Below, piece by piece: positions 32,616 through 54,244 of a stretch of 63,557 nt of DNA (positions within the stretch are counted from its first letter, which is position 1; each line of letters opens with the position of its first letter). Origin of the DNA: Acidimicrobiales bacterium (lineage in GTDB: Bacteria; Actinomycetota; Actinomycetes; Mycobacteriales; QHCE01). The stretch is taken from assembly GCA_003243955.1 (NCBI GenBank), contig QHCE01000055.1:1-63557 (forward strand), given 5' to 3'. The notes under the pieces were generated by a model. It had not been told where the DNA came from. It ran no database searches and worked only from the letters and a program-made list of their open reading frames with translations. Made by a program: the position numbers and the translations under genes.

Positions 32616-32686
32616 GAATCATGTCATCGCGGGTATCTCATATGACCCGTAGCTTACGGGCTGTCTAGCGAAGATTATTAATAAGG

Positions 32687-32748
32687 GGCATTTTCCGGGA
32701 AAACGCTGGTTGAAAAACAAAATTCATGACGTTTTCCCGGAAAACGCC
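32687..32748. repeat. Paired 21-bp palindrome doublet D
   Basis: ggcattttc-cgg-gaaaacgct (32687-32707) + 20 bp + gacgttttc-ccg-gaaaacgcc (32728-32748). Confidence 0.85.
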
Positions 32749-32785
32749 CCCATTTTGGGCAACCACGTGCAGTAATCTTTTTCTT

Positions 32786-33905: not shown

Positions 33906-35540
33906 GTGAGTGCTAACAACAGCGGCAACCGGCAGCAGAATCAGCCTGGCACGGCTGGCTGGATGCCATCCGCGCCGCCCGCATATCGCGGTCCAGCTCA
34001 GCTGAGCCCACCGCACTCAGGACAAAGTAGCCCCATGCCGGTTTCTGGCCGCCCGGTATCCGGCCCAACCCAGTACGGCCGTCCGACCAGCGCTCCGGCA
34101 GGTCCACCAGGGAGGCAGGGTGCTCCCGCTAGCGTTCCCCCCGGCTATGCGCCATCTACTAGCGGCTTTCCGGGCAGCTACGGTCCTCAGGGCTCCCCAA
34201 CCCATCCGGGTGCGCCTGGCATGTTCGCCCCACAGCAGAACCGGTATCCAGAGCCTGGAACAATTGAACAACTGCCCGGAGGAAAAAACAAGAAAAAGAA
34301 GCGGTCGCTGTGGGACGCTTTTATGGGCGACCTGGGCAAGAACAAACGTAACCAGGGCCGCAAATCACGTTCACGCTCACCCGAAAGCCCCTCGCCGTTG
34401 GCGGCATACGGCAGCCTGGATCACCGCCTCGGGATGTCTGAAGGCGTGTTGCAGCAGCAACCGCCAGGCTTTCGGGTAGAAGACGGCGTAGTCGTTCCCG
34501 ATGATGCTCGACTGAAAAAAGCTCGTCGTCGTGGTCCGGGCATGGGCGGCGGGCGCTGGCAACGCTTTGCTTTCCTCACCGCGATGCTGCTAGCGATGGC
34601 GCTGTTGATGGCACTCGGGGTGGCCCGTTTGGTGGCCGGCGCTCCCACGAACGACGCAAAGCTTTCGGCGGGAACGAACTTTCCGAGCGAAGGCGCCGCC
34701 GGATACGTCGAGCGGTTTACCAAGATTTTCTTTAGCTGGAATGAAGGAGACCCACCGCCACGGCAGAACGCACTCGCAACCTATTTTCCAGCGGCTGGTC
34801 AGACCAACTACGGCTGGAACACCAAAGGTCATCAAGAGGTATCTGATATGCCGGTGACGCTGCACATCGATGTGGAAAACGACCATCGGGCGGTGATTAC
34901 CACTGGCGCGTCGGTGGTAATGAACCCGGGTAATCCGAAGCCAGACGTGAGATTTTTGTGCTCGGCTACCTCGGTGTATGCGGCAAATAAAGACTCATAT
35001 GCCATCGACTCGTACCCGGCATTGGTGGCCTGTCCACCGCCGGCCGCGGTAAACGTGAAGCAGGATCAGCCCGACCTGGATAGCAGCGCAGCCGCCGCTG
35101 AAATCAAAAACATAGTCGAAAAATTCTTTACAGCATACGCGACAAACGACTCGGGCACATTCGACCTCGTGCTCGACCAAGGAGCCAATGTTACCGCTGG
35201 TTTAAACGGGGATCGCAAGATTGACGGAAAGCCAACGGTGCGGGTGGTCAAACCCGCCGAGGGCGCGGATGCTTCGCTGCGTGAGGTTCGCGTTCAGGTC
35301 AATTGGCTGCAAACAGAGGGCGGTTCAAGCTCAAGCCTGTCGGAGTATGCCATCACCGCCAAGCTGGTAGGTGGCAGCTGGAAGATTGCTAAGTTGCGCC
35401 CCGCTCTGCCCTCGGCGGATCTGCAGCCTGAGACGAGTGCTGAGCAACGAAAGCAGCTTCAGAACAATGCTCCTGGTTCCACCGGTGCCAATAGCGGCCA
35501 ATCTGCTACGTCGAGCGGTCGAGCTAACGGCGGTCCTTAG
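33906..35540 (+). CDS. TcpC/ConB (VirB8-like) conjugal transfer protein
   Basis: Pro/Gly-rich N-terminus, one TM, two repeated domains beginning YVERFTKIFFSW and IVEKFFTAYA; position before tcpE/virB4. Confidence 0.7.
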   Translation: MSANNSGNRQQNQPGTAGWMPSAPPAYRGPAQLSPPHSGQSSPMPVSGRPVSGPTQYGRPTSAPAGPPGRQGAPASVPPGYAPSTSGFPGSYGPQGSPTHPGAPGMFAPQQNRYPEPGTIEQLPGGKNKKKKRSLWDAFMGDLGKNKRNQGRKSRSRSPESPSPLAAYGSLDHRLGMSEGVLQQQPPGFRVEDGVVVPDDARLKKARRRGPGMGGGRWQRFAFLTAMLLAMALLMALGVARLVAGAPTNDAKLSAGTNFPSEGAAGYVERFTKIFFSWNEGDPPPRQNALATYFPAAGQTNYGWNTKGHQEVSDMPVTLHIDVENDHRAVITTGASVVMNPGNPKPDVRFLCSATSVYAANKDSYAIDSYPALVACPPPAAVNVKQDQPDLDSSAAAAEIKNIVEKFFTAYATNDSGTFDLVLDQGANVTAGLNGDRKIDGKPTVRVVKPAEGADASLREVRVQVNWLQTEGGSSSSLSEYAITAKLVGGSWKIAKLRPALPSADLQPETSAEQRKQLQNNAPGSTGANSGQSATSSGRANGGP

Positions 35541-35633
35541 AGTGAGGGTGAGGCAGATGCATGATTGTCGCTGAATTGAAGTTCAGGCCGCGTTGTCGGT
35601 GCCAGCGATGGCGCTGAGATAAAGGAGATTGTC

Positions 35634-35918
35634 ATGATTCACGAGTTTGCCGCACAGGTTGTGGCCACCCACGGCGCTGACGTGCTGTACCTGGCTACAG
35701 ATGGCAATAAAATTGCAGGTGGCGTCAGGGATTTCATCGCGCCGCTTGCCGCGATCATCATCGGAGTGATGGGGATCCGATATTTAATTGGTGACCAGCG
35801 CTCTATGGCCGGATTCATCGGATTCCTGCTACTGGGCATCATTGTGTATGCGTTCATCAAGTACGGCAAGGAAATTCTTGACTCCTTCAGCCAGCTTTTA
35901 CAGGGTTGGCTCGCCTAA
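35634..35918 (+). CDS. Small 2-TM protein (TcpD/ConC positional equivalent; possibly pilin-like)
   Basis: 94 aa, AAGGAG RBS, two hydrophobic helices, between tcpC and tcpE. Confidence 0.65.
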   Translation: MIHEFAAQVVATHGADVLYLATDGNKIAGGVRDFIAPLAAIIIGVMGIRYLIGDQRSMAGFIGFLLLGIIVYAFIKYGKEILDSFSQLLQGWLA

Positions 35919-35970
35919 GGCTGGGTCGCGAGAAGCGATTGTCATCTGATGTGCGTGGGGAGGAGGAGCG

Positions 35971-36414
35971 ATGCTGGTCCGGACTTTTACCAGTACCTGG
36001 AACCTGCGTACCAAAATCTATGCGTTTGAAGATGTCAAGGTTCCGATCAAGGGTGGCATCACTGTGCCGCAAATCCTTGCCGGCCTTGGTGTGGCCATGG
36101 TCTGGATCCCGCTCTGCCTAATCATTCAGATGCCCTCATGGATTCCCAATCCCGGCATTCTGGTCGGAATTATGGGAGTTCCGCCGGTGCTTGCGCTGCT
36201 GAAAGCTGATACGCCAGTAGCGCATGAGAAAACCACGGAAGAGTGGCTCACTTCCTGGCTTACCCGCCAGAGCGAACCGCGCCGAGTAGGGGCACTAGGG
36301 GTGGTTCCCAAAGGCCACAAAGTGCTCTTAACCGCCACGCATTGGGTGCCCCGTTGGGGTCGCGATGAGTGGCTTCGATCCACAGCGCGTTTCCAGGAAA
36401 GAGGTAGCGGCTAA
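35971..36414 (+). CDS. TcpE/ConD (VirB3-like) membrane protein
   Basis: RTFTSTWNLRTKIYAFEDVKVP..ITVPQ N-terminus, 2 TM, coupled to virB4. Confidence 0.78.
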   Translation: MLVRTFTSTWNLRTKIYAFEDVKVPIKGGITVPQILAGLGVAMVWIPLCLIIQMPSWIPNPGILVGIMGVPPVLALLKADTPVAHEKTTEEWLTSWLTRQSEPRRVGALGVVPKGHKVLLTATHWVPRWGRDEWLRSTARFQERGSG

Positions 36415-39400
36415 TGGGCGGTTTCATTACCATTGTTATCATTTTCCTGCTGGTTGGTGTGGGCGGATACGTATATACCGAGTGGCAAAAGCGAGGCAGC
36501 CTACAGCGGGACAAGCCGGCGCTTCCGCACCGGCTTTCGCTGCGCTACCTCGACAACACCGTGCTGCTCTCTGAACACGAGGCGTGGACGTATCTTCGGC
36601 TACCTACAGTCTCGGTGGAATTCAAAACCGCCGAGGACTGGGACCGGCTCATCTCCGCGTTCGGCCATGCATTGGCTGGCCTGACGGATTGCCGCATCCA
36701 TCTCAAGACCGCGTTTCGCGGGTATAACATTGCTAAATGGGCCGAGCAGCTAGACAAGCGCACCTATCACCCAGCACCTGGCTGGTCTGAACTGCTCATT
36801 AAGCAGCAAGAGCACCTTTGGTATGAGCAGTTCATGCAGAAGGAAGTGTATCTAGGGGTTCGGCTGGGTTACCGGAACAATGAGGCTTCTAATCAGTTCA
36901 AGAACGCACTACGGAGCATCAAGAACTTTCTCAATGTGACCGCAGACGCCCTGCTGGGGCAAGACGACGCAGTCGAGGCTAAAGAGATCGCGCGTTGGCA
37001 TGCCGCGGCCGGTCCCATTCAGCGGCTGCTGCGTGGCAGTGTCTACCAGGCAGTGCCTGCTACCTCCGATGAGGTGGCGTGGCTTTTCCGGCATCACATG
37101 CACCCCGAGATGCCGGCTCCGCCACCACCGGCGCGTGAGGGCCAGCCGTGGGGGCGCGGTGAGGTTCAATCGCTGATCGAAGGCTTGGTGGATCAGAGCG
37201 AAAGCCCGTACTACCTCAAGGTTACCCAGCCCAACTGGGATTTTCTGAACCAGCAGCGTGCCCATGAGCGCAACCCTTCAGTAACACCCAAGCCCGACAC
37301 CTCGTTCACGTCATATACGGCCACCCTGTGCATCAGTCGTATTCCTACCGAAATGGACACCTGGGACGGTAATCCGTGGATTCACCACGCCGAAGATCCT
37401 TCGTTGGGCTTTGCGGTGGAGTTCTCCGGTTACTTTGACATCACCACCCCGGCTAAGGCTAAAAAGGATGTCGAAAAGCAGGTACAGAAAGTCTCCGCCC
37501 AGCAGCGCCATATTGAGCAGGCAGGTGCTGAAGTCCCCACCCGCGTTGCCGATGCGTTCATTGCCGGTAAGCATCTGGACTCTGAGGTAGAGCGGGAACG
37601 TAAATTCTTGGTGTACGGCGCTGGCAGGCTACTGGTGTGCGCCGAAGACGCTGAAGAGCTCACCCGGCGCTGTGAGACGCTGATCGAGCATTATCGTGAC
37701 ATTGGTATTGACGTGGCTTGGACGCCCAACGATCAGTTGAGGCTGTTCATCGAGCAGTTCCCAGGGGACCGGCCACGGCTCAAGGTGCGGGCCTATCGGC
37801 AGGTGCAAGAGCTGGAGACTGTGACGGCGGGCTTGTTTACCGCGTCGAACTCCCTTGGTGACGGGGAGGGTCCATATTTGGGGCGTACTACTGGACGTAG
37901 CCAAGAAATCGTGCACTTCGATCCGCTATACGCCCCACGCAACAACAAGCCGCCTGGCGTGGCCATCGTGGGCGCCCCCGGTGGTGGGAAGACTTTCACG
38001 ACGTTGGCCACTGCCTACCAGACGGCAATGCGGGGCATAACCACTGTGCTGCTGGACCCCAAAGGTGACGCCAAAGGACTGGCGACCATTCAGGGTCTAG
38101 GAGATGTCCGAATCCTGGAGCTCGGTGCCCGCATGGCCGGGTTGCTGGATCCGTTCTCCTTGGTTGCCAGTCGTGAAGAGGGCACGCTGCTGGCCATGGA
38201 AACCATGCGTTTGCTGCTCGGTGGCGAGATGACTTCGGATCGAGAAAACGCCATCGTTTCGGCTATTCGCTATATCGCGGTGCAGCCCGAGCCTAACCTG
38301 CGTAAAGTGGTGGAGCTGTTGCTCGCGGGTGGAGTGGAGGGAATCAACCCCACCGGCACGCCCTATAACGACCAGCAGACAGCTGTCGCCAAATCAGCCG
38401 GAAACCTGCTCGAGGTGATCTCGGAGCTTCCGCTGGGCAACCTGTGCTTTTCCAACGCTCAGTCACAGGTAAAGATCGCGCAAGGCCGGCTCACGATCAT
38501 CACGTTGGCAGGGTTAACGCTGCCGTCGGCAGCAACACCACAGGATCGTTACACTTATGCGCAGCGGTTGTCGGTGACCCTGCTGTACCTGGTTACGCAT
38601 TATTCGCGATCGCTGGTTATCGACCCGCTCTACACTGGGCCGAAAGCGCTGGTTATTGATGAGGCGTGGGCCATCACGCAGACCTCGCAGGGCGCGCAGC
38701 TTGTGGCCGAAGTTGCCCGGCTTGGCCGATCGCGTAATACAGCTCTCATTCTGGTGTCTCAAAACGCTGGTGACTTGCTGGCCGAGGATGTGAAGAACTG
38801 TCTAACTACGATGTTTGTGTTCCGCTCTGAAGATCCAGCAGAGATTGCCGCGGACCTGGAGCTGCTGCGCGTTTCCGACAACCCCGAGCACCGCAACATT
38901 ATCGCCAGTTTGCCCACAGGCAAACATTCTGAGTGCATCATGCGTGATATTCGAGGCCATGTGGGCACAATGCGGGTGGACATGTCCTACCTGCCCGATG
39001 TTGTAGTCGCGTTTGACAGCACACCCGATGACGGTAGTGGCCGTATTCAGTCCGCCGCGCGCCGGATCATCACCGATGAGAGCGGCAAGATTCTAGGTGT
39101 GGTAAACACCGATGCCGAGGGCGAGCAGTTGCGGGCTTCGATTGCCGCCCAACAGCAGGCCGCTTTCGGCGGCCAGGTTCCGGTTGCGGTGCCGTTGCCG
39201 CACAGCGCCGCGCCTAGAAACACGGCTATACCAGCAAATTCTGTGCCCCCAACTTCTGTGCCACCACTGGTCGTGCCACCGATTTCGGCGCCGGCAGTGC
39301 GCTCGGCGCGGGTGGGTACCATGCCTAGTTCAGCTGCCCCAACAGGGCGAATGGGGGCAGCTGCTCCGCCAGCTTCGGTTTCACCAACTTCGGCACCTCA

Positions 39401-39584
39401 AGTTCCTGCGCATGACCCGATCAGCACTCAGGGAACGGTGTATACCAGTTCGGGACATGACGCTGATCGCGATACTGGTGTCGATGTTGACAATGCTCAT
39501 GACGCTGCCGAAAACTCTGAGCCCTCCCCAGCGCAACCACGGCGCAGGAGCTCCGCGGCACCGTCATGGTCGACTAGAGAGTAG
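36414..39584 (+). CDS. virB4: VirB4-like ATPase (TcpF/ConE type)
   Basis: Walker A GAPGGGKT, LLDPKGD, Walker B LVIDEAW, RLGRSRNTALILVSQ; low-complexity C-tail. Confidence 0.9.
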   Translation: MGGFITIVIIFLLVGVGGYVYTEWQKRGSLQRDKPALPHRLSLRYLDNTVLLSEHEAWTYLRLPTVSVEFKTAEDWDRLISAFGHALAGLTDCRIHLKTAFRGYNIAKWAEQLDKRTYHPAPGWSELLIKQQEHLWYEQFMQKEVYLGVRLGYRNNEASNQFKNALRSIKNFLNVTADALLGQDDAVEAKEIARWHAAAGPIQRLLRGSVYQAVPATSDEVAWLFRHHMHPEMPAPPPPAREGQPWGRGEVQSLIEGLVDQSESPYYLKVTQPNWDFLNQQRAHERNPSVTPKPDTSFTSYTATLCISRIPTEMDTWDGNPWIHHAEDPSLGFAVEFSGYFDITTPAKAKKDVEKQVQKVSAQQRHIEQAGAEVPTRVADAFIAGKHLDSEVERERKFLVYGAGRLLVCAEDAEELTRRCETLIEHYRDIGIDVAWTPNDQLRLFIEQFPGDRPRLKVRAYRQVQELETVTAGLFTASNSLGDGEGPYLGRTTGRSQEIVHFDPLYAPRNNKPPGVAIVGAPGGGKTFTTLATAYQTAMRGITTVLLDPKGDAKGLATIQGLGDVRILELGARMAGLLDPFSLVASREEGTLLAMETMRLLLGGEMTSDRENAIVSAIRYIAVQPEPNLRKVVELLLAGGVEGINPTGTPYNDQQTAVAKSAGNLLEVISELPLGNLCFSNAQSQVKIAQGRLTIITLAGLTLPSAATPQDRYTYAQRLSVTLLYLVTHYSRSLVIDPLYTGPKALVIDEAWAITQTSQGAQLVAEVARLGRSRNTALILVSQNAGDLLAEDVKNCLTTMFVFRSEDPAEIAADLELLRVSDNPEHRNIIASLPTGKHSECIMRDIRGHVGTMRVDMSYLPDVVVAFDSTPDDGSGRIQSAARRIITDESGKILGVVNTDAEGEQLRASIAAQQQAAFGGQVPVAVPLPHSAAPRNTAIPANSVPPTSVPPLVVPPISAPAVRSARVGTMPSSAAPTGRMGAAAPPASVSPTSAPQVPAHDPISTQGTVYTSSGHDADRDTGVDVDNAHDAAENSEPSPAQPRRRSSAAPSWSTRE

Positions 39585-39590
39585 CCGACC

Positions 39591-41720
39591 ATGACGGCCG
39601 CCGTGCACCATAGACGGTTGGCGAGAAGCGAGCTTTGCGTTGTCTCCGCCAGCGGCACCTCAGCCGCGTTTGTTGCGGAACTTTCCCGCCAGGCCGAGCT
39701 TTCCGCGCACCGGGTTCGGTTGGTCGCCGCTACATCAGGACCAAGTTGGCGGCGAGTGCTGATTAAGGTGGTGTGGCCTATATCGCCACGGTCCAAATCT
39801 AGATCAGCCTACCGCGGTCTACGGCTACCGGGGGTTGTTGCGTTGTTGCTCGGGGTGCTGCTTTCGGCGTATTTCCTAAATGCGGGCAGCGTTTCCGAAC
39901 ACTCGAATAAGCTTGTCGGAGGCTCATCCCTAGCCGCAGCGGGTTGCCCATTCATTCCACTGCCGGATACAGCTCCGAATCCCTTTGGGGACAACATAGA
40001 TCTCAAGCCATTTAAGCAGAGTTTGAATAACTTCTGCGATGCGCTCGGGAACTTTGCCAAAAATCTAAAAGATCACATACCCCAAGGCATTAAAGATGGC
40101 TTGAAATCGGCGTTCAATCAAAATCGATTCTGCTTTTCTTCCCGAGTGGCTCTAAGCCCAGAAGATCCGAATCAAGGGCTCAATAGCTTGATGACCCGGG
40201 GAGTCGGATTCTTGTTTGGATCGGACAAGGGTAACAGTACTTCTCCAACCACATGGAACCAGTACGGTACCGCGGGGGCTACGTGGAATACATATTTTCT
40301 GGACTGTTGGAATAGTGGCGGAAATGAAACCGTCAACTACGCGGCAAATTTCATATTTGATGTATCAAAAGTATTTTCTGTGATTGCTATTTTGCTGTTT
40401 CAGGAGACTTTTAACAATCAGATTGTTGATTATTTTTTCGTGGCGCATAATGGTGCTCCGCAGTCTCCGATAGATACCATACTTCAGCAACTCAATGTTG
40501 GTATCTATGTGAACTTCTTCGCTGTCGCGGTGGTCCTTGGCGCACTCATACTGCTGTACAACAACGTGCTCCGCGGTAATGGTCTCTCCGACGCGCTAGG
40601 CAAGATCGGAATCATGGTTGCCGTAGCGGCTTTTGCCGCGGTGTTCGTCTCACAGGGCAGTAGCTACGTACAGAAAGCAAATGCCTATACCAATGAGGTG
40701 GGGGCATCAGTGCTGTCCGCGCTGACTGGCACTAGCTGCACGGACTCTGCTGGCAAAGCCATTACGACCACACCTTACGACTGCGCCGCACAGACCATGT
40801 ATGACGCTTTGGTGTTTCGTCCGTGGGCCAGCGGATACATCGGGGAATTGGAAGTACTGAACAATCCTCGCGAGACGCAGGCCCGGCGTGCGCTAGCCAT
40901 GAAGATGCTGCAGCAAAACGCCTACTCTTCGGAAGAAAGTGCTGAGATTGCACGTACGGGTACCTCGGCGCAACGGTTCATTGACGCAAAGCAGCAGAAC
41001 CGAAAGGACATGGTTCTTGGCTGGGGGGCGAGATTCATTGCCAAAGATGGCCAGCCCGCGACTACCGCATCCGATCCAAACTCTAAATTCGACCCCAACT
41101 CGTGGCGACCATACAGCCACGTGGAGACCGATCGACCCGAATATTGGAATCTCTGGAGCGGTGGAGCGGCTAATCAGCAGATGGTTGTGGCTACGCTGGC
41201 GCTCATCGCAAGTTTTGCGATGGGTACAGTACTTATCACGCTGACGGCGGCCTATTTAGTACTGCAGCTGCTGACCGTGTTGTTGGCGATAGTCGCACCG
41301 ATCATCTTTCTTATTGGGTTGGTCCCCAAATTTGGTCTTCCCGTTGTACTGCATTGGGGTGAGACCTTTATGCAGCTGTTTTTGAAACGGATAGCCCTAG
41401 TGGTCTTCGTCGGTGTGCTGTTGGCGATGTTGCACATTGTTTTCGCGCTAGCGTTGCCGTGGTGGATGCAGCTGATCCTGGTACTCGGCGTAGCTATAGC
41501 GGGCCGGGGGCACCGGCGTCAGTTTACTAATTGGGCATCCTCCGGTATGCGCGGTATGGGAAACGTCGCCGAAATCGGAACTGGCGGGGTGCGGGGCATA
41601 ATGCATACTCGTAGATCACTGAAACAGGCCCGGCAAGGTTGGCGGTCGTCGGACGGTCTCGCACTGAATGAACGGGTCGGGGTAGCCGGCCGCTCCGGAT
41701 ACGCGGGATTTGATCGCTGA
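39591..41720 (+). CDS. VirB6/ConG/TcpH-like polytopic membrane protein, paralogue 1
   Basis: Multiple TM clusters around a large loop; shares TTWxxYGxAGxxWxTYFLxC and PWAxG motifs with paralogues. Confidence 0.72.
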   Translation: MTAAVHHRRLARSELCVVSASGTSAAFVAELSRQAELSAHRVRLVAATSGPSWRRVLIKVVWPISPRSKSRSAYRGLRLPGVVALLLGVLLSAYFLNAGSVSEHSNKLVGGSSLAAAGCPFIPLPDTAPNPFGDNIDLKPFKQSLNNFCDALGNFAKNLKDHIPQGIKDGLKSAFNQNRFCFSSRVALSPEDPNQGLNSLMTRGVGFLFGSDKGNSTSPTTWNQYGTAGATWNTYFLDCWNSGGNETVNYAANFIFDVSKVFSVIAILLFQETFNNQIVDYFFVAHNGAPQSPIDTILQQLNVGIYVNFFAVAVVLGALILLYNNVLRGNGLSDALGKIGIMVAVAAFAAVFVSQGSSYVQKANAYTNEVGASVLSALTGTSCTDSAGKAITTTPYDCAAQTMYDALVFRPWASGYIGELEVLNNPRETQARRALAMKMLQQNAYSSEESAEIARTGTSAQRFIDAKQQNRKDMVLGWGARFIAKDGQPATTASDPNSKFDPNSWRPYSHVETDRPEYWNLWSGGAANQQMVVATLALIASFAMGTVLITLTAAYLVLQLLTVLLAIVAPIIFLIGLVPKFGLPVVLHWGETFMQLFLKRIALVVFVGVLLAMLHIVFALALPWWMQLILVLGVAIAGRGHRRQFTNWASSGMRGMGNVAEIGTGGVRGIMHTRRSLKQARQGWRSSDGLALNERVGVAGRSGYAGFDR

Positions 41721-41874
41721 TGAGACCTACAATTACCGCAAACAGCGCGGATGGACCGCGGAACTACGCCTATGCTGGTGTTATTGCACCACGGCTGTAC
41801 GGCGAACCCGGCACCTCTGGGGGAGCAACCCGGCATGCAGCGGGGCACGTGTATCACGAGCGATCGGACACCTG

Positions 41875-44304
41875 ATGAGCCAGTACCTATCGCCAAGTCC
41901 TGTCGGGACTACCCCCGCGCATGCTCGTCGAACGCCTGCGCTACGGGTATGTACGCCTGTCGGCACAAACGCGGATTTTATCGCCGAGCTACACTCCGAT
42001 TGCACGGTGATGCAGGCATCAGGTGGGGTGTCGTGGTTGCGCCGAGCGGCGCGCTGGCTGCTACCCACGCTTGGGCGGCGAGCCAAGTCAGCCGTTGTGC
42101 TGGTCGCGATAGTCCTGGCCGTGCTGCTAGGTAATTTCAGTGTGCTGCCACGCCACAATGATCCAGTAGGTGCCGCATCGGTGGCGGTCGCCTTCCCTAT
42201 CGAGTGTGGTCCGCTGAAGTTTGCTTGCGATGAGCTCGATGCCATAGTTAGCTCTATTGGAACGTTTATCGCCGATGGGCTACGGGGAATTGTTGATAGC
42301 GCGATCAGTCCCAACAGTTGGTGTAATCGCATCACTATGGCGCCGGAGAGGCCCGACACCGGCTGGAGCGGAAGTATTCTTTCGGCGGCCCGAAGCAAAA
42401 GTCAATTTTTCGAGAGCTACAACACCGACGCCGGTACCACCTGGTCTAGGTATGGTGCCGCTGGGACAACATGGAATACCTATTTTTTGGATTGTCTCTC
42501 GGCTGGAAATATCGCAAACTTTGCCGCTAATGCTGTTTTCGATTTTGCCAAGCTCGTTTCGGTTCTCGCCATAGTAATATTTCAGCAGACGTTCAATAGT
42601 GGACTGCTCAATATCTTTTTGGGCGGAGACCCGCCTCCTGTACAGCAGATAATCGATAGCCTAAACCTGCAAATTTATGCAAACCTCGCCGCGCTGGCTA
42701 TTGTAATCGGTGCGCTCATACTTGCCTACCGCGCAATTCTCCGGGGTTTTGGTATGGCGGACTTTTTAAGCAAGTTCCTGGTTATGGTCGCAGTTTCTGC
42801 ATTTGCGGTGCTATTTTTCCACAACGCTATTCCCTGGATTCGGTGGGGTAACCAGCAAGTAAATGACATTACTAACAGCGTGATGACCGCGCTTCGCGGC
42901 AGTGAATGCACCAATGCTGAAGGTAAACCAATACAGCTGAAACCCGTGGATTGTACGGCCGAAAGCGTATACAACACACTGGTGTATACACCGTGGGCCA
43001 ACGGTGAGGTTGGGTCGCTCAGTTCGACGAATGGCCAGGGCAATACCGCAGACGACAAGCGCAAACTCGCCGCACGGATCTTGGATCAGCAAGCTTTCAC
43101 CTGGGCTGATGTTAAGGGAGTGGACACTGAGATCATCGGCCAAAGGGTGAAATCAACGGAGGGTCCCATCACTGGCGCTCGTGTGGACTCAGGGCTGATA
43201 GATAAGGCCAAAGCTAAAGTCGCGGATCGTGACAAAATGGTTAAAGATGATTGGGGTCTGGTCATTCGAGATGACAAAGGTAAAGAAACCCCGTTTAATC
43301 CCGAAGGCATAGAGGGCTACTCCCAGGCCCATCCCACCAAACAAAGTGAGACCGTGTGGTCCATGTGGTCGGGAGGCAAAGGCGGCGAGCGCTTCGGTAT
43401 AGCGGTGCTGGCCGTTGTTGGTGCCTGGGCGTTTGGTGGAATGCTGATCGCTATCGCTTTTACCTATTTGGTGCTACAGATCGCTACGGTGTTGTACGCG
43501 CTCGTCTCGCCTCTCGCCTTCTTGGCCGGGTTAGTACCGGTGTATGGCACGCGAGTGTTCTTGGCTGTAGCGGAGGGATTTTTAGGCACATTCATCAAAC
43601 GGGTCGCTATGGCAGTGTTCGTCGCGCTACTCCTCACGTTGTATCAGGTGATTCTGGGCGCTGAGGGGGTTCCGTGGTGGCTACAGATGGTGTTGATTCT
43701 AGCCATTGCCGGAGGCGGTGCTAGTTATCGCAAGAAACTGACTTCGCTGTCTACGTTGGGATTTGGCGGCGGCGGCGGTGGAGGAGGCGGTGGTGGCTTG
43801 GGTTCATCGGCGGCCAGAGCATCCGCTATGCGAAGCACGTGGCAAACCGCTCGTGATCTGGCCATTATCGACCGGGTAGCCGCCGCCACTCGCGCTGGGG
43901 CCAATCCTGGCTCGGGTGGCAGCGGTGTTCGATCGGGCGGCTTAGTGAATCACGGCTCCTCTGAGCGTATTTTGCCACGCGATCAGCAAGCGGCGGCTCG
44001 CAACGCCGCCCGTTCCGGCAGGCAGCGAAATTACACGCCGGGGTCACGCCCGGATGGCCGGACGTCGGGCCGATATCCCGTAAACGGTTCAGGTCCAGGA
44101 GGGACCCGGGCGGTGAACGCGTCACCCAGAGCATTGAATCGAGGGAACGTTTACAACGCGCGGCAACAGCATGCCCAGCCGCAACACGCTTCACCGCAAC
44201 AGCATGCCCAGCCGCAACATTCCCAACCGCAGCCACAATCACTACCTCCGGGTCGACAGCCGCGCCCGGATCGGCCACCGGGGAAGGGCATGGGTAATGG
44301 TTAG
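41875..44304 (+). CDS. VirB6/ConG/TcpH-like polytopic membrane protein, paralogue 2
   Basis: Same motifs; poly-Gly and Gln/Pro-rich tail. Start uncertain (ORF open from 41710). Confidence 0.72.
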   Translation: MSQYLSPSPVGTTPAHARRTPALRVCTPVGTNADFIAELHSDCTVMQASGGVSWLRRAARWLLPTLGRRAKSAVVLVAIVLAVLLGNFSVLPRHNDPVGAASVAVAFPIECGPLKFACDELDAIVSSIGTFIADGLRGIVDSAISPNSWCNRITMAPERPDTGWSGSILSAARSKSQFFESYNTDAGTTWSRYGAAGTTWNTYFLDCLSAGNIANFAANAVFDFAKLVSVLAIVIFQQTFNSGLLNIFLGGDPPPVQQIIDSLNLQIYANLAALAIVIGALILAYRAILRGFGMADFLSKFLVMVAVSAFAVLFFHNAIPWIRWGNQQVNDITNSVMTALRGSECTNAEGKPIQLKPVDCTAESVYNTLVYTPWANGEVGSLSSTNGQGNTADDKRKLAARILDQQAFTWADVKGVDTEIIGQRVKSTEGPITGARVDSGLIDKAKAKVADRDKMVKDDWGLVIRDDKGKETPFNPEGIEGYSQAHPTKQSETVWSMWSGGKGGERFGIAVLAVVGAWAFGGMLIAIAFTYLVLQIATVLYALVSPLAFLAGLVPVYGTRVFLAVAEGFLGTFIKRVAMAVFVALLLTLYQVILGAEGVPWWLQMVLILAIAGGGASYRKKLTSLSTLGFGGGGGGGGGGGLGSSAARASAMRSTWQTARDLAIIDRVAAATRAGANPGSGGSGVRSGGLVNHGSSERILPRDQQAAARNAARSGRQRNYTPGSRPDGRTSGRYPVNGSGPGGTRAVNASPRALNRGNVYNARQQHAQPQHASPQQHAQPQHSQPQPQSLPPGRQPRPDRPPGKGMGNG

Positions 44305-45982
44305 AGACGGTGAGCAAATAACCGGACCTAGCCCACACCACGATCGGTCCTCTCGAGCTGTGCGTGGCGCGCGGCGGCGTCGCCTTGTCATGGAGCTGCC
44401 TCGGCAGCTATCCACCCGAGCCCTACGTGGAGTGCGGTCGGCGCTGCGCGCAGCGGTTCGAAACGTATGGCGCGGTATCGCTGGTGCGGGTCCGGCGGCG
44501 ATGGCTGCGCTGCGGCGCAGTGTTGCGACTCAGCGCACTATTCGTCCGGAGCCGATCGGTCCGCGTAAACGTAACCTGCGCCGGATTTACTCCATCGCGC
44601 TGCTGGGTGTGGCGGCCCTGATTGTGGTAGCGCGGATCAATAATGCCCAAGGCTTTTCTACGGCGTTTTTCATAGCGCTACTGCTGGGTTTGATTTTCAT
44701 TGCCTGGACGGGGTATCGCAGTGCGTTGGCCACGGCGGCTGCGATCGGGTGGTGGCTGATCACAACACCGCTGATCTCACTAGCCGCCGCCTCAGGTCTT
44801 CCGGTGCAAGAGGTTTTGGTGCGCGCCGCTACCTCAAACGAAGCCGTTATCGGTACCGGTATCGCGGTGTGGGTCTGCGCGGTGCTCATGCGGGCACGCC
44901 GCAGCTGGATCACCATTCTCGGGTGTTGGTTCTTAAATGTGGCGGCGATTTTAGCCACAGGCGCCCTTGCGCCACGCCTCGCGCTTGCCGGGGGCTGGCT
45001 GGCTATAGCCCTGTACTTGGGGTGGCGAGCCGGATGGCTGCTGACCGCCTATGATCGGCTCAACGGCCGAGCTCGAATGGGCCGCGTTTTCCAGGTGGCT
45101 ACCGAGGAACAGTACGAGGTCTATGGCCACCTGGCGGAGCTTGGCAACGGCTTTGTCCGCCGATATCAGCTGGCCGTGCCCGACGAATATAACCCAGCCA
45201 CAACATTGGACGCACTAGTTGTGGGACCTACGGGGCTGTTTCAGATCACCGCGGTGGACGGTTTAGGCCGGATCGTGGTGAACACCAGCGAACGACGCCG
45301 GGTCACGGTAGAGGGCGCTTCCATTGATGCTGAACTCACCGATATTGCCCGTACGGCGCAGGCGTTGGCCCGTGCGCTGCGGGTGGAAGTTGTGCCGCTA
45401 GTCGCCATGTGCGGTTCAACATTTCCCGAAGGCAACCACGGCCTGATCTCAATCGCGATAACGCTTCCGCCGCCACAAGCCACAGACGGCCGCGAAACCA
45501 AAGCCGATCTGATTCCGTTGACGCTGATTGACGCGGAGCTATTGGCTCGTCGGATCGCTTTTGGTTCGGCGGTGTACACCACTGGGCAGGTGCAGCGCAT
45601 CATTCACCGCGTGGGCACTGTGCTCTGGCCGGCCGCCGGTGCTGCTGATCGACGCATCACTCGCCGGCGCCGGGGCACTAAGCGAGATACTTTCGCCCCG
45701 GGTGTCGAGGTGGAATGGGTCGATGAGTCAGGCATTTGGTCCGGATGGGTATGTGTTTCTCGGGTGACCGTACTAGATGAGGTCCCTAAAGGTCCGCTCG
45801 CGAGTACGCTTTCAGTAAAAGACAAAGTGGTCTGGATCGTGGCAAAGGCAGAATGGGATCGAGCGCGCAGCGTTGGCAGTGATCCAAGCCCCGAGCTAGT
45901 GCAACCAGTGGCATCTAGTGCGCTTCGGTTAGCTACGCCTAATAAGCATCAGACATCTCCGGCAGAGGACGGCGCATCGTGA
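44297..45982 (+). CDS. Multi-TM membrane protein with degenerate NERD-like domain
   Basis: ~6 TM, then TLDALVVGPTGLFQITAV..GRI resembling NERD IDHxxxGPxGxFxIETK; overlaps both neighbours. Confidence 0.6.
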   Translation: MVRDGEQITGPSPHHDRSSRAVRGARRRRLVMELPRQLSTRALRGVRSALRAAVRNVWRGIAGAGPAAMAALRRSVATQRTIRPEPIGPRKRNLRRIYSIALLGVAALIVVARINNAQGFSTAFFIALLLGLIFIAWTGYRSALATAAAIGWWLITTPLISLAAASGLPVQEVLVRAATSNEAVIGTGIAVWVCAVLMRARRSWITILGCWFLNVAAILATGALAPRLALAGGWLAIALYLGWRAGWLLTAYDRLNGRARMGRVFQVATEEQYEVYGHLAELGNGFVRRYQLAVPDEYNPATTLDALVVGPTGLFQITAVDGLGRIVVNTSERRRVTVEGASIDAELTDIARTAQALARALRVEVVPLVAMCGSTFPEGNHGLISIAITLPPPQATDGRETKADLIPLTLIDAELLARRIAFGSAVYTTGQVQRIIHRVGTVLWPAAGAADRRITRRRRGTKRDTFAPGVEVEWVDESGIWSGWVCVSRVTVLDEVPKGPLASTLSVKDKVVWIVAKAEWDRARSVGSDPSPELVQPVASSALRLATPNKHQTSPAEDGAS

Positions 45983-48621
45983 GGCTCACTAACAGCCAGA
46001 ACCTCGGAAACCAGCAGTACGGCGGCGCGGGGTCCGGTATGGACAGCGTCGCGGTCGGAATCATATCGGGTGTCATCCTGGCGGCCATGATTGTGGGATT
46101 CGTACTCAGCCTGTTGTTTTGGTTCTCTGGTCAGCTTTCTGGCCTGATCTGGGGCGGTAACTGGCCGAATGCCGCCCCTAGCGATTCGGTGCGCATCTTC
46201 ATCAAAGCGTTCTCGAATTTGGGGGATCCGGCAGCTGCCTGGCCAGCGCCAGCTCGCGATGACGTGGGCCCAGCCGCTGTGGTGTACATCCTGTTTTTGA
46301 TTCTGGCCGCACCCGTGGCGTGGGGGCTCACTCTTGGTGGTCAGTACGCAATGCGCTTTCGGCGCCGCCGGGAAAACCGTGTATTCCGGCTGGGCTTTGC
46401 CGACGGTGGTGAAATACGTAGACTGCTGTCCTCGCGAGCGGTAATAAAAAAGGCCAAGTCCGTCCGGCCGTCTTATAAGGGCAAGCACAATATCAACCCG
46501 CAAGATGTCGGGTTCTTTTTGGGCAAAGACACTCGTTCGCACCGAAAGCTCTACTGCTCAGTGGAAGACGTCATGCTGGTGGTGGCCCCGCCCCGGCAGG
46601 GTAAAGACGTACATTTTTGCATCCCCAACATCATCGACGCTCCTGGTCCGTGTGTAGCGACCACTACGCGTGCTGACATGTTCGCTGCTACTGTCTCGCT
46701 ACGTGAAAAGGTAGGCCACGTCTGGGTCTTTGACCCTAATGATATGACTAACTGGCCTAGCCAGCTGCGTTGGTCGCCGGTGAATGGTTGTCACGAGCCA
46801 CTGGTGGCGCTGAACCGCGCGGCGGCTTTTGTGGCCGGCGCCGGAGTGGGTGAAGGTGTGCAGAATGCGTCCTACTGGACTGGTGTCGCTACCGCTATTT
46901 TGCGCTGCTATTTCTTGGCCGCGGCTACCTCTGGCCGCACGATCACCGATGTGGTGCGCTGGTCGACCCAGCCCACCAACCCGGAACCCATCCAGATTTT
47001 ACGCAAGCAAGAAACACTTGGCCGGGCGCCGCAAGGCTGGGCGGGTGAGTTAGAGAGCGGGGCTTCGGCCGACGGTGAAACCCGGGGCAACATGTGGGCA
47101 GGTGTCCGACGAGCGCTGGACTGCTTCGCTGATCCACGAGTCTTGGCCGCGTGTTCACCGGGCCCGGGCGATGTGTTCGACGTCGCAACCTTCGTTAAGG
47201 GCCGTAATACCCTGTATGTTTTGGGAAAAGAAAAGAAGAACGGTAGCGTCGCGCCGCTGGTCACAGCGATGATGGAAGACATTTTTGACCAAGTGCGCAG
47301 GATCGCTAGCCGGTTGCCCAACAGCCGCATCGATCCACCGCTTACCGTTGAGCTCAATGAGGTGGCCCATATCGCGCCCATGCCGAACCTGCCGGGCTAC
47401 ATGGGTGACTCCGGTGGTTTCTCGATTGCGCTGCATGTGTACTTGCAGTCGCTGGGGCAGGCGCGCGGCAAGTGGGGCAACGATGAAGCGGCTGTTATGT
47501 GGGACACCGCGGCCATCCGGGTGGTAATGGGTGGTTCGGGTTATGTCAACGACCTTGAGGACATCTCCCGACTGCTCGGTGAGGTAGACGAGAAGACAAA
47601 GAGTGTGTCGACCGGCTCTGGCGGCAGAAGTACGTCCTATAGCAAACAGAAACGGCGTGTACTCACGCTTGATGAGCTACGGACACTGAAATTTGGCACC
47701 GCCGTAGTGATTGCGCGTGCCGCGCGCCCAGTCGAGGCCAAGCTGACCCCATACTTTAAGCGCAAGGACGCTAAAGAAATCTCTGCTGGGCAAGCACGGG
47801 TCGGTAAAGTGATTGCCGCGGAAGAGAATCCGATGAATGCCTTCTCTGGGCTGACGTCGACCGGTTTGTTAACTCCACCCGATAGTAGTGGCGCTGGTGG
47901 AGCGGGTGCGTATTCAGGCAGCGGCGGTGGCGGCAACGGAGGTGGGGGAGGCGGCGGAGCTGGCGTAGCGCTGCCCGCGGCTGCGCTTCCAGCTGGAGCA
48001 GCTTACGGGCATGACGGTTACTCCGCGGCTAACCCTGGTTACGCCAATGCCTCCGCCCAGCAGGGGTTTGTGCAGCAAAGTCCTGCCTGGCAGTCCACCG
48101 CCCCAAGCCAACCTCCGCAGACGTGGGGTGCTCCCGCTGCCGCCACCGCGCCAAGTGTGGAGCCACCACCTCGTGCGGCGTACCAGCTCCCGGGACCATC
48201 GGGTTGGGGCTCTGGTTCGGCACCGGAAACCGCGTATCCAACGGCTCCGCACCCACCAGCGGCGATCCCCGCTGCATACGAGACGCCACTGGATGCCCAG
48301 GCCTATCTGGAGCAGGTCGGCCCACAGCAGCCGGTGCCACCGACGTTCCAGCCCGCTGAGCCTCAATCCCAGAGTGGCACGCTTCCTCAGCTTTACCAAC
48401 CTGGTGCAGTCAGTCAGCCTAGTTACGGACAGTCGTCAAGCTATGACGCTGGTGCCTATAGTGCGCAGATGCCAGGGGCGGCTGTGGCCACCAATGGATA
48501 CGGCGCCGCGAGCCCTCCGCCTGCGGCCACCGCTGAGCAAGAGCGTCCGGCTGGCCCTAAACTTGCCTCAGGTTGGGGACCGGTCCGCGGACCGACCAAG
48601 AGTGACGCTGATCGAGACTGA
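45979..48621 (+). CDS. virD4: VirD4/TraG-like type IV coupling protein
   Basis: Two N-terminal TM, APPRQGKD, VFDP, RIDPPLTVELNE, LQSLGQARGKWG, LEDISRLLGE; long low-complexity tail. Confidence 0.88.
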   Translation: MRLTNSQNLGNQQYGGAGSGMDSVAVGIISGVILAAMIVGFVLSLLFWFSGQLSGLIWGGNWPNAAPSDSVRIFIKAFSNLGDPAAAWPAPARDDVGPAAVVYILFLILAAPVAWGLTLGGQYAMRFRRRRENRVFRLGFADGGEIRRLLSSRAVIKKAKSVRPSYKGKHNINPQDVGFFLGKDTRSHRKLYCSVEDVMLVVAPPRQGKDVHFCIPNIIDAPGPCVATTTRADMFAATVSLREKVGHVWVFDPNDMTNWPSQLRWSPVNGCHEPLVALNRAAAFVAGAGVGEGVQNASYWTGVATAILRCYFLAAATSGRTITDVVRWSTQPTNPEPIQILRKQETLGRAPQGWAGELESGASADGETRGNMWAGVRRALDCFADPRVLAACSPGPGDVFDVATFVKGRNTLYVLGKEKKNGSVAPLVTAMMEDIFDQVRRIASRLPNSRIDPPLTVELNEVAHIAPMPNLPGYMGDSGGFSIALHVYLQSLGQARGKWGNDEAAVMWDTAAIRVVMGGSGYVNDLEDISRLLGEVDEKTKSVSTGSGGRSTSYSKQKRRVLTLDELRTLKFGTAVVIARAARPVEAKLTPYFKRKDAKEISAGQARVGKVIAAEENPMNAFSGLTSTGLLTPPDSSGAGGAGAYSGSGGGGNGGGGGGGAGVALPAAALPAGAAYGHDGYSAANPGYANASAQQGFVQQSPAWQSTAPSQPPQTWGAPAAATAPSVEPPPRAAYQLPGPSGWGSGSAPETAYPTAPHPPAAIPAAYETPLDAQAYLEQVGPQQPVPPTFQPAEPQSQSGTLPQLYQPGAVSQPSYGQSSSYDAGAYSAQMPGAAVATNGYGAASPPPAATAEQERPAGPKLASGWGPVRGPTKSDADRD

Positions 48622-48727
48622 TTCGAAACTCATCAAACGGGGTCCTGATACGAGCAGGGGGCGACATGCACACGTGGAGTAGTGCTTGCCAATCGTCGCT
48701 GTGTTGGGAAGTCGGGGTAGCACCACC

Positions 48728-50941
48728 ATGGCCGACCTAACAGTTATTTCCCGAGGTAGGCAACCGCGTTTGGTGGTTAGCTCACTTAGTGGCATCAATG
48801 CGCAATTTGCTCAGCTGCTGCAGACTAATCCGGCCCCCTTGCAGGCCGGTTCCGGCTACCGCAAACTGCTGCGCAGTGGATTCACCATACTGCGGAGAAA
48901 GCACCGTTGGCGAAAACCAGTCGTAGGCGTCATGCTCGGTGCGTTTGTGGCCACGTTTTTGCTGGGAATGAGCGTATCGCCAGGCGCTGAAGGGCAACGG
49001 GTAGGCGCTATCACGGTTGCACAAGCGGAAGAGGGTGATTGTCTCGCCGACGACTTTAATATTCCCATTCTCCCCGGATTCCTGCAGGGTGTGATCAAAA
49101 AACCGATTAACGCGGTATGTCGAGCCTTTCATGCTGCCGCAAAGCTTATATCGGAATATGTCCTCAATCCCATCGGAAACTTTTTGTGGAGCGCATTTCA
49201 GGCCAATCTGTGTTCGTCGCGTACCAGCATTGATCCTGATGACCCCCAGGCTGGGCTGAGCAGTTTAATGGTGCAAGGCGCGGAAGTTCTGGTGGGTAAG
49301 AATGCTGAATCTCCGGCGCAGACTACCTGGCGAGAATATGGTGTAGCTGGTACTTCATGGGGCACCTACTTCTTGAACTGTACCGATTTTTCTACCCAAA
49401 TACAAAATTACGGTGCAAACTTCGTATTTTCTGTTTCTAAAGTATTTTCGCTCATTGCTATCTTGTTATTTCAGGAGACGTTTAACAGTAAAGTTGTTGA
49501 CTATTTTTTTCTTCCGCAAGGCGGGGCGCCCAAATCGGCTATCGATACCATTGTTAACCAACTCCATTTCGGTCTTTATATGAATATGATGGCTGTCGCT
49601 GTCGTGATCGGTGCCGCTATTATATTGTACAGATCCATCATTCTTAGAGGGGGTTTGGGCGAAGCCCTGAGTAAAATTGGAATCATGGCGCTCGTGGCCG
49701 GTGTAGCGTTGGTGTATGTCAGTCAGGGTTCGCAGATTATTCAGAAAGTTAGCGCCTTTACGGATGAGACGGGTGCAGCGGTACTCGGGGCACTCAGTGC
49801 CGGAGGCTGCAATAACAGTGATGATCGTGCTGTACCAGGTGGTGCGAAGCCATATGAATGCGCCGCGCAAACTATGTACCATGTACTGATTTATATTCCA
49901 TGGGCTAATGGTGAAGTTGGGACCATTGATGTTTTTGGTGATGCCGTCTATAGCCAGCAGCGCAAAGACCTCGCATATCGCATTCTACACCAACAAGCTT
50001 ATGATCGAAAAGAAAGCGGAATAGTTAACAATCCCGCGACCGATGGCGCCGAGCGGTCGAAACAAACTCAAAAGCTTATACAGGCCAAAGAAGACGACCG
50101 GTTCAAGATGGTTAAAGACGACTGGGGAGCGCGGTTTATTGCCAAGGGCGGCAAGCCCGAAGAATTCGCGGTTACCGGCGAAGCCGCGAAGCGCCCCTAT
50201 GAAGACGTAGATGTTGACTACCCAGAATATTGGTTAATGTTCTCGGGAAAAGAGGCTGGGCAGCGTTACATCATCGCAATCATGGCTCTGCTTGCGTCAT
50301 TTTCCTTAGGTCTGGTTCTGATCTCCGTCACGTTCGCGTATCTGGCGCTGCAGCTCATGACGATCGTCCTTGCCATGGTTGCACCAGTGGCCTTCCTAGT
50401 GGGACTGGTGCCAACATACGGGTACCGAATATTCCTCAAGTGGTTTGAGCTTGGCGCCGGGCTGTACATCAAACGACTCGCATTGGTGGTCTTCGTGGGG
50501 ATATTGCTCGGTGGGTTGCAGTTAATCTTCAAAGTACCCGCCCCGTGGTGGCTGCACGTGGTATTCGCTTTCTGTATTGGGTGGTTTGGTCTGGCTTACC
50601 GGCATCAACTCAGTAGTTGGGCCAGTACTGGTATGGAGGGGATGGGTAAGTTCGCGGGCATTGCTACCGGGGGCTTGCTGGGCATGAAAGACGGGGTTAA
50701 ATCCGTCAGATATGCGAAAGCCACCTGGCAGGGTACTCGCGGTTTACCGGCGCGACAGCGAGCTCGGGCGGCTGTGGGTTCGGCATATACCGCGAACCAA
50801 ACCGGCGCCTCACCCGCTCAGTACACTGGTCCGCGGCGCGGAGCCCAAGCAACTGGTGCGGGCAAACCTTTGTCAAAGCGCCAGCAGCGTAAGGCCCAGC
50901 GTCGTTCGTCACGCAACGGCTCCTACACGTATCAGCCCTGA
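48728..50941 (+). CDS. VirB6/ConG/TcpH-like polytopic membrane protein, paralogue 3
   Basis: Most similar by eye to paralogue 1 (SKVFSxIAILLFQETFN in both). Confidence 0.72.
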   Translation: MADLTVISRGRQPRLVVSSLSGINAQFAQLLQTNPAPLQAGSGYRKLLRSGFTILRRKHRWRKPVVGVMLGAFVATFLLGMSVSPGAEGQRVGAITVAQAEEGDCLADDFNIPILPGFLQGVIKKPINAVCRAFHAAAKLISEYVLNPIGNFLWSAFQANLCSSRTSIDPDDPQAGLSSLMVQGAEVLVGKNAESPAQTTWREYGVAGTSWGTYFLNCTDFSTQIQNYGANFVFSVSKVFSLIAILLFQETFNSKVVDYFFLPQGGAPKSAIDTIVNQLHFGLYMNMMAVAVVIGAAIILYRSIILRGGLGEALSKIGIMALVAGVALVYVSQGSQIIQKVSAFTDETGAAVLGALSAGGCNNSDDRAVPGGAKPYECAAQTMYHVLIYIPWANGEVGTIDVFGDAVYSQQRKDLAYRILHQQAYDRKESGIVNNPATDGAERSKQTQKLIQAKEDDRFKMVKDDWGARFIAKGGKPEEFAVTGEAAKRPYEDVDVDYPEYWLMFSGKEAGQRYIIAIMALLASFSLGLVLISVTFAYLALQLMTIVLAMVAPVAFLVGLVPTYGYRIFLKWFELGAGLYIKRLALVVFVGILLGGLQLIFKVPAPWWLHVVFAFCIGWFGLAYRHQLSSWASTGMEGMGKFAGIATGGLLGMKDGVKSVRYAKATWQGTRGLPARQRARAAVGSAYTANQTGASPAQYTGPRRGAQATGAGKPLSKRQQRKAQRRSSRNGSYTYQP

Positions 50942-53637: not shown

Positions 53638-53904
53638 CTAGCGCTTGTTTTTGTAGACCTGACCACGCGGTTGTACGCGTATAATGTCGATGACTAGGAG
53701 GTCGTCGTAAACGTCATAGAGGACGCGCCAGCCACCGACCCTGATCCTCCAGCCGAACTTCCGGCCGGCGAGTTTGTCTACTCCTGGGGGATGTGGATCT
53801 TCGGCTAAGGCACGAATCGCCGCAGCGATTCGTTTAGCGATTTGAGAGTCGAGCTTGCCAAGGTCTTTTTCGGCGCTACGGGTGATTTCTACGCGGTAAG
53901 CCAC
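53638..53904 (-). CDS. RelE/ParE-family toxin
   Basis: YRVEITRSAEKDL, WRIRVGGWRVLY, RGQVY. Confidence 0.9.
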   Translation of the reverse strand: MAYRVEITRSAEKDLGKLDSQIAKRIAAAIRALAEDPHPPGVDKLAGRKFGWRIRVGGWRVLYDVYDDLLVIDIIRVQPRGQVYKNKR

Positions 53905-53909
53905 TAGCC

Positions 53910-54185: not shown

Positions 54186-54244
54186 GCCTCCATCGTAAAC
54201 GAAGACACCACAGTTAGCGCACTCTGGCAGTATCTTGTTTGGTT

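Follow-up and report, generated by a model that had tools for sequence, protein, structure and literature searches.

The window, a stretch of 63,557 nucleotides (nt), is contig C43 (QHCE01000055.1) of G000, a 2.42-Mb, 94.8% complete metagenome-assembled genome (MAG). Its hosts are uncultured soil actinobacteria of a Mycobacteriales family, f1, represented by five genomes (G000, G001, G002, G003 and G004). The interval between the core genes guaB3 and guaA holds nine intact, co-oriented open reading frames (ORFs; 33861/33906-50941) of a Gram-positive type IV secretion system (T4SS) of the MPF_FA type. A preliminary description of this DNA had reported these nine genes in the order TcpC-small protein-TcpE-VirB4-VirB6, with VirB4 and VirD4 motifs. 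Profile searches bear out the order and both ATPases and add that the VirB6 paralogs number three, but the size of the unit has to be revised. Two membrane genes, at 31983-32615(-) and 32726-33742(+), lie beside the cluster in every one of the eight orthologous loci that cover its left side, and also in G003. Since they travel with the cluster, the unit comprises 11 genes and starts further to the left. The genes and their flanks are as follows, with dN/dS ratios calculated by the NG86 method for G000 versus G001.

30847..31968, plus strand: guaB3, left flank, core gene (TIGR01304)
31983..32615, minus strand: conserved accessory protein with a single transmembrane (TM) segment, divergently transcribed, without family match (dN/dS ~0.11)
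32726..33742, plus strand: helical conserved accessory protein with two TM segments and a Pro-rich tail (dN/dS ~0.12; same eight loci)
33906..35540, plus strand: TcpC/ConB (VirB8-like), with a long Pro-rich N-terminus (PF12642, E 3e-12)
35634..35918, plus strand: TcpD-like small two-TM protein (NF040686, E 1e-3, below cut-off; position and conservation)
35971..36414, plus strand: TcpE (VirB3-like) (PF12648, E 3e-4, below cut-off; dN/dS ~0.07)
36414..39584, plus strand: VirB4/TcpF ATPase, with an N-terminal TM region and a low-complexity tail (PF12846, E 8e-49; dN/dS 0.039)
39591..41720, plus strand: VirB6-like paralog a, polytopic, with Cys-containing loops predicted to be extracellular (NF046089 below cut-off; tree)
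41875..44304, plus strand: VirB6-like paralog b (likely start 41875; longest ORF from 41710)
44390..45982, plus strand: membrane-anchored NERD/PD-(D/E)XK pseudo-nuclease (longest ORF from 44171; 4-nt overlap with virD4)
45979..48621, plus strand: VirD4 coupling protein, with a Pro/Ala-rich C-terminal tail (PF02534, PF12696; dN/dS ~0.10)
48728..50941, plus strand: VirB6-like paralog c (likely start 48728; longest ORF from 48686)
51005..52594, plus strand: guaA, right flank, core gene, intact, ends not duplicated (NF000848)

The minus-strand gene upstream was found by iterated hidden Markov model searches beside the cluster in G001, G002, G004, G028, G059, G060, G061 and G591. Its plus-strand neighbor probably starts near 32786; it has no family match, and its best atlas score (0.80) is uninformative. 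TcpC, beside virB4, scores 47 bits against PF12642 (cut-off 27). The best NCBIfam match of VirB4 is TcpF (NF052333, E 1e-58, below the narrow cut-off of that family), and its Walker A (GAPGGGKT) and Walker B (IDEAW) motifs are both intact. The VirB6-like proteins, each with 7-8 predicted TM segments, score 60-86 bits against NF046089, below the cut-off of 120; a Nonomuraea VirB6 homolog matches PF04610 (TrbL/VirB6) above cut-off.

The nine ORFs are uninterrupted, as had been reported. Spacing among them and before guaA is at most 154 nt, and therefore no gene is hidden there. Several translational overlaps had been described; with plausible starts two of them hold, tcpE/virB4 (1 nt) and nerd/virD4 (4 nt), while the others do not. 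Codon use of the cluster is inside the range of the genome, with virB6a and virB6c at the 91st and 95th percentiles. No Rfam match was found across 29000-56000, a promoter and terminator scan of the locus stayed at chance level, and the sole tRNA of the window is distant from the cluster.

Among the 57 ORFs scanned in the window there was no match to a relaxase, integrase or Rep family, and profile scans found no VirB1-like wall hydrolase (Orf14/TcpG/CwlT) in the cluster, which agrees with the preliminary account of every ORF in the interval. The genome-wide checks proposed there gave the same picture. Eight relaxase families (PF08751, PF13814, PF03432, PF02486, PF01076, PF03389, PF18555 and PF07514) were negative in G000, with positive controls for each family except Replic_Relax (7/14 relatives positive, 0/5 in f1). 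Nine relaxase query sequences had no tblastn match in G000, and MOBC was detected in none of the five f1 genomes. Ten tyrosine-recombinase matches were found in G000, none of them on C43 (the genome-wide search covered tyrosine and not serine recombinases). The two cluster flanks share no exact match longer than 10 nt, so that neither att repeats nor flanking direct repeats are present, the latter as had been noted. No credible joint skipping the cluster was seen among the joints listed for the contigs of eight runs; such contigs leave out rare variants, and the MAG may derive from some of these runs. In run X12 one diverged-strain contig spans virB6b through guaA, and in run X11 the parE module near the cluster is replaced.

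Several candidates for mobility were examined and discarded. A 12.7-kb "skip" in run X10 was discounted, being supported by 22 letters only. A scan of 2451 ORFs for the HUH motif returned 25 matches, of which six were scanned (four ordinary enzymes and two proteins without family) and 19 were judged by eye. Islands that integrate at guaA use its 3' end; guaA as a classic integration target was rejected here because its ends are not duplicated. The palindrome GACGTTTTC-nnn-GAAAACGTC (32682-32750 and 54990-55057) was considered as an att site, regulon switch or boundary and rejected as a dispersed, REP-like repeat: its core has 49 matches in G000, often in pairs 41 nt apart, including 7486-7545, 3383 and 6127, and the orthologous loci of G001, G002 and G004 have none.

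The guaB3-cluster-guaA arrangement is found in G000, G001, G002 and G004 and in the Fodinicola genome G028; in G003 the guaB3-side and guaA-side junctions are both present, on separate contigs. When a VirB4 fragment was searched for at E<=1e-30, seven of 400 genomes of the order were positive, namely all five f1 genomes and both of Fodinicola. In f17, a Micromonosporaceae-level family, 3/401 genomes were positive, and in f14 0/12. The guaB3-guaA interval of 11 other genomes (0.4-10 kb) contains none of the queried cluster genes. In an RpoB tree f1, Fodinicola, f14 and f17 form a single clade (SH-aLRT 99). In the VirB4 tree G004 lies outside (G002,(G000,G001,G003)) and Fodinicola joins f17 (84/85), likewise in the tree of guaB3 plus guaA, and the two trees agree at resolved nodes. 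Monophyly of f1 had a support of 92 in a quick VirB4 tree and was left unresolved in the careful one. Placing the G000 clade together with the Micromonosporaceae carriers was rejected (approximately unbiased test, p-AU 3e-9). VirB4 of G000 is 94% identical to that of G001 and 75.0% to that of G028; the corresponding values are 92% and 82.5% for RpoB, and GuaA is 75.4% identical to that of G028.

The cluster is under purifying selection. Apart from virB4, tcpE and virD4, six cluster genes have dN/dS ratios of 0.11-0.15, and guaB, guaB3 and guaA have ratios of 0.05-0.07, so that virB4 is as low as guaA, all of these ratios being rough with pS near 0.7 and with tcpD and virB6c saturated. The pS of the cluster genes resembles that of the flanks. 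The cluster is intact in G000, G001 and G004 and frameshifted as assembled in G002 and G059; the latter frameshift points to an assembly error, because another record of the same species lists a full-length VirB4 of 970 residues. The simplest reading of this history is one old acquisition, kept in f1 and Fodinicola and lost or relocated elsewhere, an old transfer between the ancestors of f1 and Fodinicola being a possible alternative. Synteny, tree comparison and dN/dS had been put forward as tests of domestication, and each came out in its favor (5/5 family genomes, congruent trees, VirB4 at ~0.04), as did the search for excised forms. Within f1 we found neither the patchy presence nor the cognate mobility genes that would have spoken for a mobile element.

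As a control we used a third, distinct T4SS of G000, of mobile type, on contig C12 (L076), which carries DUF4913, ParA-like and SLT/NlpC genes. Its VirB4 matches one of the four other f1 genomes, at 38-40% identity, and the counterpart in G001 (L182, G001:C122) has a MOBP relaxase ~3 kb beyond DUF4913. Patchy, divergent and equipped with a relaxase, this T4SS type shows the behavior of a mobile element in the genus, opposite to that of the guaB3-guaA cluster. A second fixed, T4SS-derived cluster lies on C30 (L044:3930-11663), between hisG/ribH and infC, and is shared by G000, G001, G002 and G004 with VirB4 identities of 77-81%. It comprises TcpD-like, TcpE-like, VirB4 and VirB6 genes, a ~200-aa gene and an M23 hydrolase gene, with no TcpC or VirD4 match. 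No plasmid VirB4 homolog above 41% was found among 72,556 records; the nearest, the best of 793 matching records, are from Nocardiopsis (39-41%).

The preliminary description had noted the missing wall hydrolase. The f1 locus indeed lacks one, but this is not a general trait. The only wall-hydrolase match in the window is Rpf at 60729, outside the cluster, and the four NlpC/P60 matches in G000 are all on contigs other than C43. The orthologous loci of G028, G059, G060 and G061 have a single virB6 followed by a ~240-aa gene and an M23/SLT/NlpC hydrolase. As these relatives keep the hydrolase at the same locus, its absence is a family-specific loss. The 240-aa protein of G060 has an NTF2/VirB8-like fold (PrgL 7aed, E 3e-4; TcpC 3ub1; VirB8 2cc3), with many NTF2 proteins among its matches. 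This second VirB8-like gene is likewise missing at the f1 loci, and G000 yielded no full-length counterpart. VirB6 copies number three in G000 and G001, two in G002 and one in G004, and form a single f1 clade (99), in which the cysteines are conserved and the loops variable. Positive selection on VirB6 was considered and is not shown: VirB6 diverges faster, but pN is below pS in every 100-codon window.

The VirD4 of the cluster has an unusual pair of Walker motifs. All 11 orthologs have GKD in Walker A and N(E/D) in Walker B, the G000 copy having GKD with NE; two other VirD4 proteins, from G000 and G028, have GKT/SKT with DE. In a set of 256 VirD4 homologs, 77 combine Asp in Walker A with Asn in Walker B and 161 another residue with Asp, one has Glu, and 17 could not be scored. 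Most of the 77 belong to one clade and are therefore not independent, with at least one outside it. The reciprocal exchange suggests that metal binding is preserved and that the swap is compensatory. Isolated proteins from Frankia and Actinomadura also fall in the GKD clade, and the swap may therefore be older than the domestication. No relative of the Frankia VirD4 turned up in viral contigs. An Actinomadura-type subclade (P0185, P0189, P0192-P0194, P0197-P0201, P0204, P0206 and P0215) has NQ in Walker B, so that the catalytic Glu is also lost, and these coupling proteins are possibly pseudo-ATPases. The VirD4 ORF of G028 (L040:13581-18002) encodes 1473 residues, with ~870 at the C-terminus having no Pfam match.

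The 4-nt overlap between the pseudo-nuclease gene and virD4 recurs in one G062 locus. The pseudo-nuclease was assigned from an atlas NERD score of 0.93 with 190 shared features, together with a weak match to PF08378 (E 0.02). Residues 226-395 align with PD-(D/E)XK proteins at VIA-align Z scores of 7.2-8.4, middling by themselves; Foldseek with the whole protein gave no match at E<=0.001. The E-x-K motif is missing in 12/12 orthologs, and hence the protein is predicted to be catalytically dead; 3/4 comparator NERD proteins have the motif. The motif I Glu is replaced by Gln in 9/12 orthologs, and the motif II Asp is retained in 9/12 and lost in 3/12. The Fodinicola loci have an extra pseudo-nuclease copy upstream of the cluster (G028 L039:13576-15420; G059 L042) and variable inserts between nerd and virD4, with an HNH gene in G059.

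We compared the cluster with known systems. The MPF_FA modules (pCW3 Tcp, ICEBs1 Con, Tn916 orf13-17; PMC4027160) share its families and the order TcpC-TcpD-TcpE-TcpF/VirB4-VirB6. Relative to them, it has VirD4 instead of TcpA, lacks a MOBT relaxase, an integrase and a local hydrolase, and adds three VirB6 proteins, the pseudo-nuclease, two extra membrane genes and vertical inheritance. The nearest well-sampled VirB4 clade outside is a sister group in Streptosporangiales (39-44%; in Nonomuraea near ispH-rmuC, in Nocardiopsis on plasmids). The Nonomuraea cluster has the same order from tcpC to virB6, VirB8-like gene and hydrolase; the Streptosporangiales clusters keep the hydrolase and one VirB6, and in the stretches examined have no adjacent VirD4 or NERD gene. 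In Nonomuraea this sister MPF_FA cluster (L124:10823-21579) sits among the core genes xseA, ispH and rmuC of an 11.85-Mb record filed as a plasmid. The matches listed include ~100 VirB4 proteins of the Streptosporangiales type (38-43%), and a tree of a sample follows families; these sequences suggest an order-wide domestication. In the literature searched, with most subscription papers and supplements outside the search, we found no description of this sister cluster, of a T4SS locus between guaB3 and guaA or of a VirD4 Walker swap.

The Cmd system of Streptomyces belongs to the other class of monoderm T4SS (FATA). The cmdABCDEF genes (SCO4126-4131) likewise form a conserved membrane cluster on the chromosome that is related to plasmids, includes a VirB4-like ATPase and serves the host; their deletion impairs sporulation and chromosome segregation, not plasmid transfer (PMC2782261). 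Set beside our cluster by description only, Cmd shows no VirB6 triplication or pseudo-nuclease in the accessible part of that report. The T4SSs of Patescibacteria (PMC12102498, PMC12857230) are also relaxase-less, chromosomal and monoderm, with VirD4 and in small genomes, but they are of the MPF_FATA class with pilin arrays and belong to obligate epibionts, whereas the G000 genome measures 2.4 Mb and carries purine, histidine and riboflavin genes of its own. Actinobacterial integrative and conjugative elements (ICEs; PMC3429521) likewise combine chromosomal VirB4 and VirD4; they are defined by an integrase and a TrwC relaxase and mostly occupy tRNA 3' ends, none of which applies here.

The guaB3-guaA cluster is not an ICE: no relaxase, integrase, att site, excision or patchiness was found. 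It is a MOBless (exapted) T4SS in the sense of Guglielmini, a recognized class (PMC3548315, PMC4027160), in being a chromosomal VirB4 system without a neighboring relaxase or integrase. We are highly confident that it is a domesticated former conjugation machine, now a fixed part of the core chromosome and passed on vertically. This was the proposal of the preliminary description, and it is supported by the fixed site, the congruent trees, purifying selection and the mobility genes not found. Domestication has precedents in Streptomyces cmd (PMC2782261) and in the Patescibacteria T4SS (PMC12102498, PMC12857230).

As to function, we tentatively prefer, on the basis of sequence comparison, a host-owned, ATP-driven channel that would export proteins at cell contacts instead of transferring itself. 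TcpC, TcpD, TcpE, VirB4 and VirB6 would make up the channel; VirD4 would still bind nucleotide and select protein substrates chosen by the host; and the pseudo-nuclease, encoded by a gene overlapping virD4, could act as an adaptor. The divergent VirB6 loops may determine partner or substrate specificity, and opening of the wall might be supplied in trans, for example by the M23 hydrolase of the C30 cluster. Protein-secreting MOBless T4SSs have lost the relaxase and kept VirD4 (PMC4027160, PMC3548315), a pattern matched by the cluster, in which VirD4 remains while relaxase and nuclease activity are gone. A fuller version, which we regard as possible but doubtful, would make the system a non-conjugative T4SS dedicated to effector translocation in free-living actinobacteria, its fixation dating back to the ancestor shared by several Mycobacteriales families. 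It would have an undescribed coupling-protein subfamily whose metal-binding Asp moved from Walker B to Walker A, loading by a membrane pseudo-nuclease adaptor, and a triplicated VirB6 that recognizes partner or prey.

Several observations weigh against domestication or export. Neither a substrate nor, in the locus, a candidate effector or immunity gene was identified. A local hydrolase is lacking, which leaves the crossing of the wall without an explanation. The relaxase negatives rest on a 94.8% complete MAG and on known relaxase families, and the actinobacterial MOBless T4SSs may, according to Guglielmini et al. (PMC3548315), reflect unknown relaxases. Contig C12 ends just after DUF4913, where its own relaxase would lie, perhaps unassembled, and the Nocardiopsis plasmids, typed as non-mobilizable, have no annotated relaxase in the stretches examined. 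The cluster was not found in 12/12 f14 and 398/401 f17 genomes and is thus dispensable in kin. In the f17 carriers its sites differ (the his operon; a tad/dynamin region; near glyS and a type VII secretion system), VirD4 is displaced in two genomes, G062 has two copies, and the VirD4 proteins intermix with those of Frankia and Actinomadura. A scan of a subset of the neighboring f17 ORFs found no relaxase or integrase match.

The retained parts of a DNA path, VirD4 and TcpC, would also serve a domesticated, relaxase-independent exchange or import of DNA between kin, in which the pseudo-nuclease would bind and guide DNA and the VirB6 loops would recognize kin. Gram-positive VirB8 proteins bind DNA (PMC11753425), a nuclease-fold domain adjoins VirD4, conservation is at housekeeping level, and actinobacteria do have non-canonical systems of chromosomal transfer (PMC12857230). 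The locus has, however, no relaxase, helicase or active nuclease, even the motif II Asp being lost in 3/12 orthologs, and we consider DNA exchange conceivable but rather unlikely. Still less probable is a Cmd-like membrane ATPase complex that works inside one organism in envelope remodeling, division or chromosome partition, without export. The cmdA-F deletion phenotype (PMC2782261) is a precedent for it, and other T4SS-derived clusters are fixed in G000 (C30) and on the Nonomuraea chromosome, but retention is patchy among kin and the triplicated, diverging VirB6 loops suggest an outside partner.

That the system is still conjugative, or is an immobilized ICE that helps to mobilize other elements or the chromosome with an unrecognized or trans-encoded relaxase, appears improbable. 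The caveat of unknown relaxases (PMC3548315) and the plasmid relatives without a recognized one would allow it, as would the six MOBC matches on other contigs of G028, the MOBP relaxase of G001, and the varying sites and two copies among the f17 carriers. Against it stand the lack of an integrase or att site at the locus and of a credible skipping joint in the eight runs, MOBC in 0/5 f1 genomes, the lost local hydrolase, and plasmid homologs that do not exceed 41% among the 72,556 records. A neutral, slowly decaying remnant is the reading to which we give hardly any weight. Two genes were lost in f1, and the G002 and G059 assemblies have frameshifts, but it is largely refuted by dN/dS far below 1 at near-saturated dS, by intact copies in G000, G001 and G004, by the full-length 970-aa VirB4 in another record of the G059 species, and by neighboring accessory genes that do decay or vary.

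Whether Gram-positive T4SSs became dedicated effector translocators is a long-standing question according to a 2025 review (PMC12857230), and the guaB3-guaA locus, intact, ancient and under housekeeping-level selection, is a clean candidate for it. Because Fodinicola, which is in culture, carries an ortholog at this site, the question is directly testable. Conjugation machines have become fixed repeatedly in the core chromosomes of actinomycetes, with two cases in G000, and the locus reveals a VirD4 subfamily with a covarying swap of Walker A and B.

Other features of the window lie outside the cluster. A PspC-type sensor kinase is fused to a response regulator at 55025-55801, and the adjacent pspC of relatives was not found in G000; the fusion arose by deletion (55085-55801), in keeping with the preliminary view that nearby accessory genes decay. 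The frame of a heavy-metal P-type ATPase (10722-12716) is open, with only an E1-E2 domain matched, and its catalytic part looks deleted. The groES gene at 26237-26966 is not followed by groEL, unlike in G028; groEL matches are on contigs C66 and C85. Toxin-antitoxin modules of the ParE and PIN types lie at 53638-54308 and 19319-20031, respectively, the ParE one being replaced in a related strain. An ORF with a resuscitation-promoting-factor domain, at 60729-61895(-), lies between purK and purE and overlaps a plus-strand ORF.

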